64,000 bases of DNA, from NCBI RefSeq assembly GCF_003334305.1, contig NZ_QOWS01000021.1. One strand, 5' to 3'. Within the stretch, counting starts at the first letter, position 1; every line of letters starts with the position of its first letter. The position numbers and the translations under genes were made by a program. This document shows positions 16,137-27,380 of this stretch, piece by piece. A model generated the notes under the pieces. That model worked only from the letters and a program-made list of their open reading frames with translations. It did not search any database and was not told the origin of the DNA. This DNA comes from Escherichia coli. Lineage in GTDB: Bacteria; Pseudomonadota; Gammaproteobacteria; Enterobacterales; Enterobacteriaceae.

Positions 16137-16514
16137 ATGACCAACAAAGAAAACAAAGATAAATATATTAACAAGTTCAAGAAAGAGCTTTCAAAATATA
16201 TACAACCAACTGCTGGAGTGGACATTCAATTATTTAACTCTAAGGATGGTGGTGGTGTAATTAAAGCCACTTTGAATAGAAGTGGAAAAAGAAAATCATC
16301 TATTGCAGGTAATTTTACTAAATTAGGTGAGGCAATTACCTCGAGTGGGCAGAGGGTTTTTGGTGGTGATCTATCAAATGTAAATTTTTACGGAACAAAT
16401 ACGATTTTTGATGGAGATACAATATTTTTAATTAAATCACCTGATTCAGAGGAGTGGTCATCACAAAAAGCTTCCAAAGACGTAGAGGGCATCGTATTTG
16501 GAGGGAAAAAATGA
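16137..16514 (+). CDS. Hypothetical soluble protein (125 aa), first gene of an AT-rich opposite-strand cassette
   Basis: ORF track. Lys-rich N-terminus and Gly-rich body; no family recognised. The stop overlaps the next start (ATGA at 16511-16514). Confidence 0.6.
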   Translation: MTNKENKDKYINKFKKELSKYIQPTAGVDIQLFNSKDGGGVIKATLNRSGKRKSSIAGNFTKLGEAITSSGQRVFGGDLSNVNFYGTNTIFDGDTIFLIKSPDSEEWSSQKASKDVEGIVFGGKK

Positions 16515-16939
16515 TTAACATTACTACTAAGGATGGCACTCAAGTCAGTGGTGAAGTAAGAGATCTAGTAATTCTTCTTGAAACTGATGGAAAAACGGTG
16601 TCTGATTATTTGCAGCCAATCCCTCCCAAAAAAGATACACACTGGAGCATGATTTTCATTCCGGTAGCAATTTATATACTACTTAATCTTGTATACATTA
16701 TTGCTCACCCATTATTTCCTGAAAAATATCTAAAAACATCAACATCTATATTTCTATTCATTTCCTTCATATTAAGTGCAATAGTAGCATATTTTGTTTT
16801 CCATAAGCATAAATCTGCCACTCTATCCATATGCAGCTTAGTGTTCTTAGTGTTAATTGTAGGTGCTAACGTAGGGTTTATCAGTTACAGCGACCTAACA
16901 CAAAAAGCGACGCAAAAATTAGATAGTTTGTCTAAATAA
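16511..16939 (+). CDS. Hypothetical membrane protein (142 aa; ~44-aa N-terminal soluble part + 3 predicted TM helices)
   Basis: The ATG at 16511 is preceded by GGAGGG. Hydrophobic stretches: WSMIFIPVAIYILLNLVYIIA, SIFLFISFILSAIVAYFVF, LSICSLVFLVLIVGANVGFI. A hairpin at 16947-16967 lies downstream. Confidence 0.6.
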   Translation: MINITTKDGTQVSGEVRDLVILLETDGKTVSDYLQPIPPKKDTHWSMIFIPVAIYILLNLVYIIAHPLFPEKYLKTSTSIFLFISFILSAIVAYFVFHKHKSATLSICSLVFLVLIVGANVGFISYSDLTQKATQKLDSLSK

Positions 16940-19313: not shown

Positions 19314-19547
19314 TTAGGCGGCAGAATTACTCGCGTTAAACAATGGTGCGAGGTCGGGACGAATATCTGCTGGTTTAATCTTTCCACCAGTGGCTGAGAC
19401 AATTTTCATTACATAGCGGGCATCAATTCCGCCACCGTGTAGCCAACGCCAAACTGTGGGTTGGGCTACACCGCATAGATCTGCCAGTCGTTTTTGACTA
19501 CCTGTAATACTGATTGCGAGTTGAATGGTTTGATTTGTCATTATCAA
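19314..19547 (-). CDS. cro: Cro-like HTH regulator (YdaS family)
   Basis: 77 aa. HTH GSQKRLADLCGVAQPTVWRWLHG. Divergent from the cI-like gene across an operator-bearing intergenic region. The start could instead be Met3. Confidence 0.8.
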   Translation of the reverse strand: MIMTNQTIQLAISITGSQKRLADLCGVAQPTVWRWLHGGGIDARYVMKIVSATGGKIKPADIRPDLAPLFNASNSAA

Positions 19548-19556
19548 TTCCTATTG

Positions 19557-19607
19557 GTATTGCAATGAATGAATAATAGCAATGAGTATTAACCCAAGCA
19601 ATAGCAA
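19557..19607. promoter_or_regulatory. OR operator cluster: three AGCAAT-type motif copies spaced about 20 bp apart
   Basis: GTATTGCAAT 19557-19566, ATAGCAAT 19576-19583, AGCAATAGCAA 19597-19607. The same motif recurs at the PL region (22278-22317). Confidence 0.55.
19573..19601 (-). promoter_or_regulatory. Candidate PR promoter (TTGCTT-17 bp-TATTAT) reading into cro
   Basis: Minus strand: -35 TTGCTT (19601-19596), 17-nt spacer, -10 TATTAT (19578-19573). It overlaps the operator motifs. Confidence 0.55.
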
Positions 19608-19651
19608 AACGTGTTTTGACCATCAATACGCAAGCGTATAAATTAAAACTT

Positions 19652-20344
19652 ATGAAAAAAGAAACTCTTGCTGATCGCTTAAATCTAGCGATGGAACAAT
19701 CTGGAATGTCTCAAGGCGCTCTTGCAAAGGCGTCTGGCGTAGCTCAACCCACAATCTGGAGACTGACAAGCGGCAACGCGCGCGGCTCAACAAAAATTGT
19801 TGAAATAGCTAATGCATTGGGTGTTCGAACAGAATGGCTCTCTTCAGGCATAGGCCCGATGAGAAATGACGGTCAACAATCAGGGAAGCCTGCTGTCAGC
19901 CATTCCAAATACTTCAAAATTGACGTTCTTGATATAGAAGTCAGTGCCGGGCCGGGTGTAATCAACCGTGAGTTTGTAGAAGTTCTACGCTCGGTTGAAT
20001 ACTCGTTTGACGATGCTCGTCACATGTTCGATGGCAGGAAGGCGGAAAATATCCGCATCATTAACGTGCGTGGTGACAGCATGTCAGGAACGATCGAACC
20101 AGGTGATCTGCTGTTCGTTGATATCACGGTTAAATCTTTCGACGGTGATGGTATCTATGCGTTTCTGTATGACGACACCGCCCATGTAAAACGCCTGCAA
20201 ATGATGAAGGATAAGCTGCTGGTTATCTCTGATAACAAGAGCTACTCACCGTGGGACCCGATCGAGAAAGACGAGATGAACCGCGTGTTCATCTTCGGGA
20301 AAGTCATCGGGAGCATGCCGCAGACATATAGAAAGCATGGGTAG
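19652..20344 (+). CDS. cI: cI-like prophage repressor (N-terminal XRE-type HTH + C-terminal S24 LexA-like autopeptidase)
   Basis: 230 aa from MKKETLADRLNLAMEQSGMSQGALAKASGVAQPTIWRL. Ala-Gly cleavage site context (EVSAGPG), GDSMSG Ser motif and HVKRL Lys motif. No SD before the ATG. Confidence 0.9.
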   Translation: MKKETLADRLNLAMEQSGMSQGALAKASGVAQPTIWRLTSGNARGSTKIVEIANALGVRTEWLSSGIGPMRNDGQQSGKPAVSHSKYFKIDVLDIEVSAGPGVINREFVEVLRSVEYSFDDARHMFDGRKAENIRIINVRGDSMSGTIEPGDLLFVDITVKSFDGDGIYAFLYDDTAHVKRLQMMKDKLLVISDNKSYSPWDPIEKDEMNRVFIFGKVIGSMPQTYRKHG

Positions 20345-20473: not shown

Positions 20474-21613
20474 ATGGCAGCGGTTGAATTTCAATTGTCT
20501 AGGAAGATGATTGATTGGATAGCAAATTCTCAAGGAGTTTCTATCGAAACTCTTGCTGACCAAGTCATGCCCAAAAAGATTAATAAATTTCTTAACGGAG
20601 TGGTAAGTAAATCCGCAGCAGAAAAACTGGCAAAAATTGGAGGAATCCCTTTCGGTTTTTTATTTCTTGAAACGCCACCAACTCCAGCCAAACCCAAGAT
20701 CCCTGACTTAAGGCAAGCTATAAATAGCCGTGAGTTAGGAAAAGATTTTTTTGATGTTTACTATGATATAGAATATAAACTTGAGTGGTACAAAGACTAT
20801 TTAAGAGAAAATGGTAATGATGATCCACTCGATTTTATTGGTAAATTTAAATTTAATAGAAAATTAAATTATAAGGTTGTTGCTACAGACATAGCAAACA
20901 CAATACATTTTGATATACAAAAAGAGATAAAAAATGTCACTTTTGAGAGCTATTTTTCTAAAGTGGCAAAACTAATAGAAGACACTGGCGTATTAGTTTT
21001 CAAGAATGGTGTTGTGGGTAATAATAATAAAAGAAAACTTGACACGCGAGAGTTTCGTGGTTTCTGTATATCTGATAGCGTTGCTCCGATCATTTTTGTA
21101 AATAGCTCGGACGCGTTATCTGCGCAGGTATTTACATTATTTCATGAGGTGGCTCATCTTTGGCTTGGAGTCGATGGAGTCTCTGGGTGGGACACAGAAA
21201 AAAACATAGAATCTTTTTGTAATAAAGTTGCTGCTGAAATCTTAATGCCTGATAATCTCTTCAAATCTTTCTGGCTTAATGCATCCAGCGATAATAATTA
21301 TTATCGAGTAAAAGAGGTTTCTAAGTTATTTAAGGTTAGTGATTTCGCTTGTGCAATCAAAGCGTTACAATTAGATTTGATAGAAAGAAACACTTTGGAG
21401 ATAATTAAAGATCAAGCTTACAATAAGCCCAAAAAAGAATCCAATGGTGGTTCTTTCTTTAACACATTACCTGTTCGTAACAGTCCAAAACTTACGAATA
21501 TAATAATTTCCAAAGCAATGTCTCAACAATTACCATTAAGGGAAGCAGGCGTACTGCTAAATGTAAAAGCAGATACAGTTGTTGAATTTTATAAAAAACG
21601 AGAATCTCTATGA
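20474..21613 (+). CDS. HTH + ImmA/IrrE-like (HEXXH, COG2856/M78-type) zinc metallopeptidase domain protein
   Basis: 379 aa. HEVAH lies at residues 224-228 (nt 21143-21157) in the context FTLFHEVAHLWLG. The N-terminal ~60 aa are XRE-HTH-like. AGGTGA RBS. AT-rich. Confidence 0.75.
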   Translation: MAAVEFQLSRKMIDWIANSQGVSIETLADQVMPKKINKFLNGVVSKSAAEKLAKIGGIPFGFLFLETPPTPAKPKIPDLRQAINSRELGKDFFDVYYDIEYKLEWYKDYLRENGNDDPLDFIGKFKFNRKLNYKVVATDIANTIHFDIQKEIKNVTFESYFSKVAKLIEDTGVLVFKNGVVGNNNKRKLDTREFRGFCISDSVAPIIFVNSSDALSAQVFTLFHEVAHLWLGVDGVSGWDTEKNIESFCNKVAAEILMPDNLFKSFWLNASSDNNYYRVKEVSKLFKVSDFACAIKALQLDLIERNTLEIIKDQAYNKPKKESNGGSFFNTLPVRNSPKLTNIIISKAMSQQLPLREAGVLLNVKADTVVEFYKKRESL

Positions 21614-22122
21614 TTCATAATGGAAAATTCTTAATTGATAGTAATGTCTTCATAGAGGCAAAAAACTTTGCATATAACTTCAATTATTGCAAAATATTTT
21701 GGGATTTTCTTCTCGCTTTACACATTAATGGTCTGATTTATAGCATTAATGCTGTAAAAAAAGAACTATGTGCAAAAGATGATCCATTGTGTAAATGGAT
21801 TAAAGAAGAGTTACCATCATCATTCTTCGAAGATGAGCATAGTTCAATAGAAAATTATGCAAAGTTAATAAATTGGTCAACTAAATTAGATGTTACCGAA
21901 AAGGCAAAGTTTGATTTTGCAAGCCATGAAAAAGCAGATGCTTTTTTAATAGCCCATGCGATGACACATGGATATACTATTATTACCCATGAGAAACCAT
22001 CCGGTGGCAAACCTAAAAAAAGAATAATGATCCCGGATGCTGCTGCTTCTCACGGCGTTAAGACATTAACACTATATGAATTTCTTCCAAGATACGCTAG
22101 TCATAATTTTTCTTTGAAATAA
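21610..22122 (+). CDS. PIN-like domain protein (resembles the DUF4411 family), candidate toxin/effector
   Basis: 170 aa. N-terminal KFLIDSNVFIEAKN (PIN first acidic residue D10), later EKADAFLIAHA and TIITHEK. The start overlaps the upstream stop (ATGA). Confidence 0.65.
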   Translation: MIHNGKFLIDSNVFIEAKNFAYNFNYCKIFWDFLLALHINGLIYSINAVKKELCAKDDPLCKWIKEELPSSFFEDEHSSIENYAKLINWSTKLDVTEKAKFDFASHEKADAFLIAHAMTHGYTIITHEKPSGGKPKKRIMIPDAAASHGVKTLTLYEFLPRYASHNFSLK

Positions 22123-22127
22123 AACGT

Positions 22128-22154
22128 CCCGGCCACCGTGCCGGGTTTTCTTTT
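22128..22154 (+). terminator. Intrinsic terminator closing the cI-linked operon
   Basis: CCCGGC-CACCGT-GCCGGG followed by TTTTCTTTT. Confidence 0.75.
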
Positions 22155-22277
22155 GCCTCCCCTCATCACACACACCGTTCAAAAAACCACCACAACCCCG
22201 CTTCAGTTATCGCTATGCGATGCAAGTCACAAAATTAATTCTTTTTGCTATCAAATATTTAATATCAAAACACATCT

Positions 22278-22323
22278 AGCAATAGCAATAAGTATTGATA
22301 TCATCAATAGCAATAGCTATTAT
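22278..22323 (+). promoter_or_regulatory. Candidate PL promoter (TTGATA-17 bp-TATTAT) with OL operator motifs
   Basis: -35 at 22295-22300, -10 at 22318-22323. AGCAATAGCAATA at 22278-22290 and ATAGCAATAGC at 22307-22317 (in the spacer) share the OR motif. Confidence 0.65.
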
Positions 22324-22429
22324 CACCATGTCGCAACAACACAACGATACGGCAATCACCTGATTCACCGTTGCGATGACCGCTTAGATCCGCAGCTTGA
22401 ATTTCAGCAGGCTCCGGGGAGTGCGAGGG

Positions 22430-22807
22430 GTGAAGCGGACGCGTGAACGTCGGTGTGACCAGCTGAAATCAACTCAACACTTCATACCTCAGTCGCTTCA
22501 ACGAGGCGGCTTAGTTATGACAACCGGCGGCCATCCACCGCCTGAATACGCGCAGAAGTCTTTATATGTTCAGCAGCCCAGCTTACGGGCAGGAGTTTTT
22601 ATGGTTCATCAACATTACGGAACGCAGACCGTTAATCGCGGTGCGGTCATGCCAGGAATGCTGGTCAAACACAAAGATGGTACCTGGACTGCATCAGCTA
22701 ATTTACGCGGACGGCTTTATCTGCATCGCGGCATCGAGCGCACTTATACCCGTGATTTGCTCGTAGAAGTTTTTCTCGACGGACGCGGTAACGGCCTGAA
22801 TCACTAA
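22430..22807 (+). CDS. First ORF of the PL operon; hypothetical, possibly an N-like antiterminator (Arg-rich N-terminus); start uncertain
   Basis: ORF 22397..22807. The GTG at 22430 has GGAG 8 nt upstream and gives MKRTRERRCDQLKS.... Alternative ATG starts are 22517 and 22601, the latter with a strong AGGAG RBS (68 aa). Confidence 0.4.
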   Translation: MKRTRERRCDQLKSTQHFIPQSLQRGGLVMTTGGHPPPEYAQKSLYVQQPSLRAGVFMVHQHYGTQTVNRGAVMPGMLVKHKDGTWTASANLRGRLYLHRGIERTYTRDLLVEVFLDGRGNGLNH

Positions 22808-25289: not shown

Positions 25290-25381
25290 AAAGCAAAATC
25301 ATCAGGGAGCTACAGGCTCCTTTTTTATTGTTCGCATTCATCCTCAAGCGTATTAACCAACAATTCAGGGATTAATGGAAG

Positions 25382-25926: not shown

Positions 25927-26269
25927 GGCCTGTCAGTTTCTTAAGATATCCAGACCAACCGCCACCAACTGGATACGAACAGGCCGCCTACAGGCAACAC
26001 GTAAAGATCCAACCAAGCCAAAATCTCCTTACCTCACAACACGGCAAGCCTGCATTGCGGCGCTTCAGTCTCCGCTGCATACTGTCCAGGTGAGCGCGGG
26101 TGATGGCATAACAGAGGAAAGAAAATGTCACTCTTCCGCAGAAATGAAATATGGTATGCCTCGTATTCGCTCCCGGGCGGGAAACGAATTAAGGAATCTC
26201 TTGGCACAAAGGACAAGCGGCAAGCTCAGGAGTTGCACGACAAGCGAAAAGCAGAACTCTGGCGAGTAG
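25898..26269 (+). CDS. xis: Excisionase (HTH, MerR-like excisionase family)
   Basis: [37 protein letters not shown]... lies immediately upstream of int. The frame stays open 145 nt into int. Confidence 0.7.
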
Positions 26270-27288
26270 AAAAGCTAGGGGATTTACCTGATGTCACTTT
26301 TGAAGAGGCCTGCCTAAGATGGCTTGAGGAAAAAGCTGATAAAAAATCTCTCGATTCAGATAAAAGCCGGATTGAGTTCTGGCTTGAACATTTTGAGGGT
26401 ATAAGGCTTAAAGATATCTCGGAGGCAAAGATTTACTCTGCTGTAAGCAGAATGCATAACAGAAAGACGAAAGAAATATGGAAACAGAAAGTTCAGGCCG
26501 CCATCAGGAAAGGTAAAGAACTGCCTGTTTATGAACCAAAGCCAGTATCAACTCAGACAAAGGCAAAGCATCTTGCCATGATAAAGGCCATTCTCCGTGC
26601 TGCAGAACGCGACTGGAAGTGGCTGGAAAAAGCGCCTGTCATCAAGATACCAGCGGTCAGAAACAAGCGAGTCAGATGGCTGGAAAAGGAGGAAGCAAAA
26701 CGCCTTATTGATGAGTGCCCCGAACCACTGAAATCTGTCGTCAAGTTTGCGCTGGCAACTGGTCTGAGAAAGTCGAACATCATAAATCTGGAATGGCAAC
26801 AAATCGACATGCAGCGACGAGTTGCCTGGGTGAATCCAGAAGAGAGCAAATCAAACCGCGCCATTGGTGTGGCGCTGAACGATACCGCCTGTAAAGTGTT
26901 GCGTGATCAAATAGGCAAGCATCACAAATGGGTGTTTGTACATACCAAGGCGGCTAAGCGAGCAGATGGAACATCAACGCCTGCGGTCAGGAAGATGCGC
27001 ATCGACAGCAAGACATCATGGCTATCAGCTTGTCGTCGTGCAGGAATTGAAGATTTCCGTTTCCATGACCTCAGACACACCTGGGCAAGCTGGCTGATTC
27101 AGTCAGGCGTCCCATTATCAGTGCTTCAGGAAATGGGCGGATGGGAGTCCATAGAAATGGTTCGTAGGTATGCTCACCTTGCGCCTAATCATTTGACAGA
27201 GCATGCGAGGAAAATAGACGACATTTTTGGTGATAATGTCCCAAATATGTCCCACTCTGGAATTATGGAGGATATAAAGAAGGCGTAA
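26125..27288 (+). CDS. int: Tyrosine integrase, IntD (DLP12) type
   Basis: 387 aa, [35 protein letters not shown]...; catalytic [10 protein letters not shown]...VRRYAHL. Adjacent to argU. Confidence 0.95.
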
Positions 27289-27303: not shown

Positions 27304-27380
27304 TGGCGCGCCCTGCAGGATTCGAACCTGCGGCCCACGACTTAGAAGGTCGTTGCTCTATCCAACTGAGCTAAGGGCGC
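27304..27380 (-). tRNA. argU: tRNA-Arg (anticodon UCU), argU
   Basis: The reverse complement reads GCGCCCTTAGCTCAGTTGGATAGAGCAACGACCTTCTAAGTCGTGGGCCGCAGGTTCGAATCCTGCAGGGCGCGCCA: 77 nt, cloverleaf-compatible, encoded CCA. Confidence 0.95.

Follow-up and report, generated by a model that had tools for sequence, protein, structure and literature searches.

A conserved structured RNA between PL and kil of a lambdoid Escherichia coli prophage without a recognisable N gene: a candidate put-like antiterminator

The described systems that come closest to the locus analyzed here are the N-nut antitermination of lambda and phi80, antitermination by Nus factors at a boxA alone, as in rrn operons and in phi80-type boxA leaders, and the put RNAs of HK022 and HK639. 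We know of very few examples of processive antitermination by RNA alone, and in this setting of none other than these two put RNAs. As outlined in one account (PMC6256539), the phage that revealed RNA-mediated antitermination was a hybrid, HK022 in its immunity and lambda in its remaining genes, and so sets a precedent for lambda genes served by an RNA antiterminator; terminators of both kinds, intrinsic and Rho-dependent, are suppressed by put for 10 kb or more (PMC9378689). Here we describe the segment between PL and gam of a lambdoid prophage in a 64,000-nucleotide (nt) stretch of Escherichia coli DNA (contig NZ_QOWS01000021.1; hereafter, the window). The first-pass annotation of this stretch, made from the letters alone, noted that PL is not followed by a recognisable N gene and proposed that the first open reading frame (ORF) encodes a novel N-like antiterminator or, alternatively, that the early-left operon relies on an N-independent, put-RNA-like mechanism or on none. 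We find that the ORF contains kil, that its upstream part coincides with a conserved structured leader RNA, denoted X, and that X alternates with put and boxA in otherwise homologous leaders. The best reading, to which we give an even chance, is that of kil and an N-independent early-left operon with X as a put-like antiterminator RNA, so that of the two proposals the RNA mechanism is the better supported.

The ORF in question, which runs on the plus strand from a TTG at 22397 to 22807 (136 amino acids, aa), is, as previously stated and as the ORF listing bears out, the only long one between the candidate PL and gam. Its residues 69-136 constitute a complete Kil protein: this part matches PHROG 294, 'Kil protein for bacterial septation inhibition', across Kil residues 1-68 (E 1.3e-37), is 41% identical to phi80 Kil from end to end (E 5e-16), and aligns with positions 1-70 of the 73 positions of the NCBIfam family NF008465, 'FtsZ inhibitor protein' (E 1.8e-17; the score of 63 bits is under the 92-bit curated cutoff). 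In the Prokaryotic Genome Annotation Pipeline (PGAP) annotation of a genome that carries the segment with 100% identity, the RefSeq coding sequence WP_000233576.1, a 'phage encoded cell division inhibitor protein' of 68 aa, has limits that correspond precisely to 22601-22807. The order kil (22601-22807), gam (22884), bet (23186) and exo (23968) is the same in phi80, HK225, KO-TP1 and S9-5 and, like phi80 Kil, Rac KilR and the Kil proteins of the lambda group, the window protein is small and encoded in the early-left operon just 5' of gam-bet-exo; in phi80, however, kil comes after N and other genes, whereas in the window it directly follows the leader. Given the PHROG 294 match, the identity to phi80 Kil and the RefSeq coding sequence, the initial statement that kil is absent does not hold. 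The segment 22601-22807 is almost certainly kil, starting at ATG 22601, and membership of this family predicts that its product blocks the formation of the FtsZ ring and leads to filamentation; the kil gene itself is already known. Of the two alternative start codons pointed out before, ATG 22517 and ATG 22601 with its AGGAG, both are present, the AGGAG at 22591-22595 lying 5 nt before ATG 22601. A start of kil at ATG 22517 is unlikely: this codon belongs to a second conserved leader element, Y (see below), and the mini-ORF that opens there (MTTGGHPPP...) stops before the next gene and is frameshifted in other phages while the hairpin stays. A 96-aa Kil isoform from ATG 22517 is possible; the frame is open in all window-type variants.

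The extension of the ORF upstream of 22601 is non-coding. The case for an N-like protein had been built on the Arg-rich string KRTRERR, which is encoded as claimed and follows a GTG at 22430 with a GGAG 8 nt upstream; what did not stand is the conservation of this string as a coding sequence. Among 70 distinct aligned sequences, derived from 80 IMG/VR loci and phage records, 19 carry an in-frame TAG at 22490 (C>T), four have a 5-nt TCAAC duplication or insertion between 22468 and 22483, and 1-nt indels occur in single variants, at 22400 and at 22426. The 21 distinct substitutions in 22397-22516 are distributed 9:6:6 over the codon positions, with 15 non-synonymous and six synonymous changes, and accordingly show no codon pattern; the changes inside kil are all synonymous (21 of 21), which is an artefact of choosing loci with a 100% identical Kil and is not used as evidence. 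Divergent copies of X read GTG-TAA at the point of GTG 22430, and tblastn detects no homologues of the Arg-rich peptide beyond this phage group. The TTG at 22397, the GGAG at 22418-22421, GTG 22430 and KRTRERR all fall within X, and the Arg codons (CGG ACG CGT ... CGT CGG) make up both arms of a GC-rich RNA stem at 22435-22454. The likeness to the Arg-rich motif of N proteins exists because this stem supplies the Arg codons; in other words, the Arg-rich start is an artefact of translating a structured RNA, and the ORF finding as first written is an ordinary one, an annotated kil with an artefactual Arg-rich start.

The same extension has entered public annotation. In the phage Perceval, PERCE_41 covers the over-extended ORF as a 139-aa 'FtsZ inhibitor protein Kil', and in Turner and IdasGreatGrand small hypothetical proteins are annotated across the leader (window equivalent 22138-22446). 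These over-extended kil and leader ORFs overlap structured RNA and are probably wrong; the extended kil ORF of ~139 aa, found in Perceval and others, should serve as a warning to annotators.

No N homologue was identified in the 22397-22807 ORF, for which Pfam returns no family and PHROGs only Kil, and tblastn searches of the window with phi80 N, lambda N and HK022 Nun detected neither an N nor a Nun homologue. N proteins are very diverse, and homology searches are weak on their own. Between PL and kil there is no other ORF in the leader, and room for a gene is lacking. Neither 22330-22600 nor the early region of PR contains a boxA, and no boxB-type nut site was found; on the rightward side, the gap between cro and cII is 24 nt and therefore leaves no nutR/tR1 interval. 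The curated annotation of Perceval lists Q and not N, and the isolated viable phages with the same layout (Perceval, 4A7, the PhiR series and others) have no annotated N; these relatives form plaques or are inducible, so that the N-less state is not a product of decay. Taken together, Pfam, PHROGs, tblastn and the lack of a leader ORF bear out the original remark that no recognisable N gene follows PL, and the interval very probably contains none. The PL transcript begins with a 270-nt untranslated leader, and kil is its first gene. Compared with the N-nut systems of lambda and phi80, the leader occupies the same genome position directly 3' of PL, and the distal operon of the window is ~97% identical to that of lambda; the differences are the lack of N, boxA, boxB, a nutR position and a tL1 terminator.

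Element X starts ~45 nt after the inferred PL start (Table 1). Relatives with ~81% identity were found in 15 IMG/VR contigs (including locus L181), one metagenome contig and one Scandinavium hiltneri genome; a scan of 100 further loci with the covariance model of X recovered near-identical copies only. In the gap-free alignment of 15 distinct sequences that was analyzed for covariation, three of the six pairs of stem A change on both sides and 100% of its cells are paired, and two pairs of stem B change on both sides. Over the whole element, 92.7% of the cells are paired, compared with 22-40% when the partners are slid, and RNAalifold recovers stems A and B unaided. Stems hold 14 of the 26 variable core columns, and ~6 of the ~60 single-stranded columns vary. 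Given its G-U pairs, the fold is specific to the plus, PL-sense strand. The window contains one copy of X (123.9 bits). X and Y are conserved structured RNAs, and that X is a functional RNA we consider probable, with good confidence. Rfam yields no match at 22330-22600; it is also silent on the HK639 put RNA, so this negative result carries little weight. The possibility that X derives from an N gene or from nutL was considered and rejected: X is a discrete cassette and has no similarity to phi80 N or nutL.

The PL leader of L181 is HK639-like on both sides (GCCAGCGGCGAAGTGGAG ... TTACCAGCAGCTCTTTGCGAGGGGCTGACGG), with X in place of the put core, and the GenBank record of HK639 labels that region 'putL-like antiterminator RNA'. 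The phi80 leader has the same 5' scaffold, with boxA at the X/put point. Loci L098 and L101 are arranged PL-put-Y-(orf54)-kil, the window counterpart being PL-X-Y-kil. In a census of all fetched loci, boxA was found in 27, put in six and X in 121, and never together in one locus. No protein is common to the X-bearing leaders; further downstream the genes are shuffled and recur across the leader types. Two X-phages, L181 and L218, have strong GC-rich intrinsic terminators between PL/X and kil-bet, and no N gene was recognised in that interval of either; in L181, L212 and L218, X lies 0.7-1.9 kb, several genes and terminators upstream of kil. Many boxA-type leaders lack a phi80-N homologue.

X resembles the put RNAs of HK022 and HK639 in its dimensions (~65-100 nt, two covarying hairpins), in its place in the PL leader near the promoter of a phage without N, and in being exchanged for put within otherwise homologous leaders. 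Its conserved 14-nt loop and 17-nt G-rich linker set it apart from put, which is built of stem I, stem II and conserved bulges and has nothing that corresponds to them. In HK022 there is also a putR, whereas the window phage has no second X; the HK639 GenBank record annotates the left-hand put only and therefore provides a single-site precedent for X. With boxA-only antitermination by Nus factors X shares the leader slot; unlike such sites, it contains no boxA-like sequence. Homology of X and put was rejected, the covariance models being negative in both directions.

The put RNAs act in cis on RNA polymerase, at the zinc-binding domain of beta', and suppress terminators with no need of protein factors; the rpoC substitution Y75N in this domain blocks put. 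By analogy, X would work in cis as a nascent RNA and alter the very RNA polymerase by which it was transcribed. The modified polymerase would then pass Rho-dependent termination in the untranslated leader without an N protein, and would also pass downstream intrinsic terminators such as the one at 25304-25322. This hairpin with its T-run, which confirms the hairpin plus T6 element reported before at 25305-25326, lies inside the early-left operon, before the genes for a DksA-type protein, xis and int, and the 441 nt around it are ~97% identical to lambda, 434 and 933W, all of them N-dependent phages. A C-rich, rut-like trend in the leader is mild (C/G up to 2.0 at 22450-22499) and is not relied on. 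That X acts on RNA polymerase and causes antitermination is what we infer from this comparison, and the chances that it is a put-like antiterminator appear to us about evenly balanced. A narrower proposal, that X is a factor-independent antiterminator RNA of a new sequence class, a functional analogue of put with unrelated sequence that is interchangeable with put and boxA cassettes by recombination, is put forward tentatively, at somewhat less than an even chance. Of the N-independent, put-like option raised at the outset, the absence of N and nut, the structured nature of X and its replacement of put and boxA have stood; this support is positional, and a match to the put model was not obtained.

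Several observations weigh against a put-like role. The evidence for antitermination by X consists of position and analogy. No match in the PL leader is obtained with a covariance model derived from six put RNAs (its best window match, 11.6 bits, E 0.035, is in a structural gene elsewhere), and the model of X does not match the HK022 or HK639 put RNAs. Neither a second copy of X nor a put copy was found in the rightward operon of the window. The folding energy of X is no better than that of shuffled sequences (z +0.7 for the window copy, -1.4 to -1.7 for others), and the covariation comes from about three independent lineages, the 15 aligned sequences being related. The slot also takes boxA and so may accept any leader cassette, not just antiterminators. 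Finally, the window lacks the strong tL1-type terminator that precedes Y elsewhere, so that read-through near PL is less evidently required here than in L181 or L218.

Three alternative explanations have to be considered against this background. An N-like antiterminator translated from GTG 22430 or TTG 22397, with an Arg-rich N-terminus that would bind a leader hairpin, might be suggested by the frame that is open in the window, the GGAG 8 nt before GTG 22430 and a peptide that starts MKRTRERR; the TAG in 19 and the 5-nt insertion in four of the 70 variants, the substitutions without coding pattern, GTG-TAA in divergent homologues and tblastn matches confined to the same phage group leave it with a negligible likelihood. 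Moreover, no Pfam family and no boxA/boxB-type nut site was found, and the last 68 aa form a full Kil protein, which homologues and PGAP start at 22601. The proposal of a novel N-like antiterminator, whose supposed gene is interrupted or frameshifted in near-identical relatives, is accordingly abandoned. It is also conceivable, and somewhat unlikely in our estimate, that the operon has no antitermination of its own and that X and Y are ordinary mRNA leader structures for stability, processing or a tight translational control of the toxic kil gene, with the distal early-left genes expressed by partial read-through or from other promoters. The missing tL1-type terminator before Y and the single good intrinsic terminator in the operon would fit such a scenario, as would the lack of similarity between X and put and the unexceptional folding energy of X; furthermore, Y abuts the Shine-Dalgarno (SD) sequence of kil, so that Y at least could affect translation. 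Yet X is not tied to kil, from which it is separated by 0.7-1.9 kb in L181, L212 and L218, it always occupies the promoter-proximal put/boxA slot, never together with put or boxA, and there are X-phages with strong terminators between PL and the recombination genes and no N gene recognised there.

X could also be, in place of a self-sufficient RNA, a nut-like site that recruits a trans-acting factor, supplied by the host in the form of Nus proteins or by the phage as an unrecognised protein whose gene lies elsewhere. The slot is able to accommodate boxA, at which Nus factors act; the long invariant single-stranded parts of X resemble protein-recognition surfaces; and N diversity defeats exclusion by homology, most boxA-type leaders in this set being without a phi80-N homologue. 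This explanation nevertheless seems improbable, considerably more so than the lack of dedicated antitermination: a protein common to X-bearing leaders was not found, the interval from PL to kil in the window is free of other ORFs, boxA-like sequence is absent from X and from the leader and, unlike the nutL/nutR pair, X has no second copy rightward. We retain X as a put-like antiterminator as the working interpretation.

Table 1. Features of the prophage around the early-left promoter (positions in the window; aa, amino acids; nt, nucleotides; SD, Shine-Dalgarno sequence)
Feature	Position	Strand	Remarks
cI	19616-20344	+	
ImmA/IrrE-type peptidase and DUF4411 protein	20474-22122	+	slot held by rex in lambda
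Intrinsic terminator	22128-22145	+	CCCGGCCACCGTGCCGGG then TTTTCTTTT
OL operators and PL promoter	22270-22329	+	promoter scan, half-sites
5'-terminal stem-loop of PL transcript (predicted)	22331-22347	+	TCG / CAACAACACAA / CGA; structure by eye
X	22373-22476	+	conserved structured leader RNA, two covarying hairpins
X stem A	22390-22396 with 22411-22417	+	14-nt loop UUGAAUUUCAGCAG, almost invariant
X G-rich linker	22418-22434	+	17 nt, almost invariant
X stem B	22435-22441 with 22448-22454	+	
X 3' tail		+	GUGUGACCAGCUGAAAU, almost invariant
'N-terminal extension' of mechanical ORF	22397-22600	+	non-coding, open here by chance
Y	22483-22600	+	conserved multi-hairpin leader element; also L084 2503-2640, L085 2484-2615, L089-L208
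Y hairpin 1	22489-22496 with 22506-22513	+	preceded by CATACC
Y UUAUGA	contains ATG 22517	+	between hairpins 1 and 2
Y hairpin 2	22526-22542	+	GGCGG-CCAUCCA-CCGCC
Y hairpin 3	22576-22579 with 22587-22590	+	abuts kil SD
kil	22601-22807	+	68 aa, FtsZ / cell-division inhibitor, phi80 Kil / Rac KilR type; SD AGGAG 22591-22595
Terminator-like hairpin with T-run	25304-25322	+	8-pair stem, tail TTTTTATTGTT

PL, with a -35 box TTGATA at 22295-22300, a 17-nt spacer and a -10 box TATTAT at 22318-22323, is the best plus-strand promoter match in the area (10/12 in the promoter scan) and lies among operator half-sites, so that the candidate PL proposed at 22295-22323 is confirmed; its transcript should start at about 22330. 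The half-sites around PL (AATAGCAAT) recur at OR (19547-19606), and the OL/PL block is the most variable part among relatives, as expected of immunity specificity. The predicted stem-loop at the 5' end of the PL transcript matches CCATCGAAACGAAACATCGA in the phi80 and HK639 leaders in the leader alignment. Just 5' of OL/PL, the terminator at 22128-22145 closes the operon of cI and the ImmA/IrrE and DUF4411 genes, and homology to most related loci begins at ~22128, the left mosaic junction of the PL-kil module.

Element Y is widespread: it is also present in phi80, HK639 and HK225 and in phages of Enterobacter, Klebsiella and Salmonella, and more than 120 IMG/VR contigs contain a core of 24 nt without any mismatch. 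Y almost always lies 3' of a strong intrinsic terminator of the tL1 type (tL1A in phi80) and reaches to the next gene. Hairpin 1 is represented by 34 distinct versions, in which six of the six stem positions covary. Hairpin 2 is kept where the mini-ORF is frameshifted or altered, and ATG 22517 is therefore part of an RNA element and not a conserved coding start. The homology of the window to phi80 and HK225 begins at ...TTCATACC; the stretch 22481-22545 is 97% identical to HK225, although the kil genes are ~72% identical. Rfam contains no match to Y. Two mosaic breakpoints were observed in the leader: L038, L041 and L068 share it only from 22364 onward, their immunity region and PL being different, and in L072 the shared part begins at 22545. 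The three modules X, Y and kil are thus swapped separately.

The long non-coding PL leaders of several X-phages contain a 16S-like stretch. In L218, a leader stretch at 4959-5005 matches positions 237-283 of 16S rRNA (Rfam SSU_rRNA_bacteria, 37 bits, E 2e-7); by eye, the 16S-like stretch is also seen in the leaders of L212, L213, L215 and L224, and it lies within a G-rich, ORF-free part of ~400 nt. Seen by eye, a conserved translation-initiation cassette, CCCGCATCAGCGGGTAACGACAGAGGGTAAGG..ATG, precedes unrelated genes of different phages, among them phi80 N, and is located at 2140-2184 in L084, 1965-2006 in L085, 7440-7495 in L209 and on the reverse strand in L181; it looks like a portable hairpin-plus-SD junction between shuffled early-left genes.

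The prophage itself is lambdoid and adjoins tRNA-Arg(TCT) at 27304-27380. On the plus strand, the order is cI, the ImmA/IrrE and DUF4411 genes, the terminator, OL/PL, the 22397-22807 ORF, gam, bet and exo, followed by the distal genes, namely lambda-like small ORFs, a gene for a DksA-type protein and int (26125-27288); leftward from 19547 follow cro and a YdaT-type cII. The module between cI and OL/PL, at the position of lambda rexAB, encodes an ImmA/IrrE protein (Peptidase_M78, 379 aa) and a DUF4411 protein (170 aa); the two genes overlap by 4 nt and are followed by the terminator. This pair is possibly a prophage defence or exclusion cassette; in E. coli AR_0369, the DUF4411 gene is a pseudogene according to PGAP. 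Another cassette, AT-rich and consisting of two ORFs, is located at 16137-16939, between P (17731-17018) and ninB (15872-15417), on the strand opposite to PR transcription, so that its transcription would converge with the rightward early operon; neither ORF has a Pfam match above threshold.

The segment from PL to gam is 91-97% identical to that of isolated phages such as 4A7, Lambda_4C10, those of the PhiR series and Perceval, a member of the genus Bievrevirus, and 2,199 of 5,426 complete E. coli genomes (~40%) carry at least 80% of the PL-leader-kil segment 22290-22810; in E. coli IAI1 this segment is 99.6% identical. We found no description of this leader in the literature searched; King et al. 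2011 (J Bacteriol 193:5784) was not covered, and an earlier description is possible. The leader is possibly a new variant of RNA-mediated antitermination. If X is indeed a second RNA solution, unrelated to put, then RNA-based modification of RNA polymerase would be common in very abundant E. coli prophages, and the way in which lambda-like early-left operons work without N would be explained. The alternation of boxA, put and X would then provide a natural three-way swap in which to study how nascent RNAs reprogram RNA polymerase.

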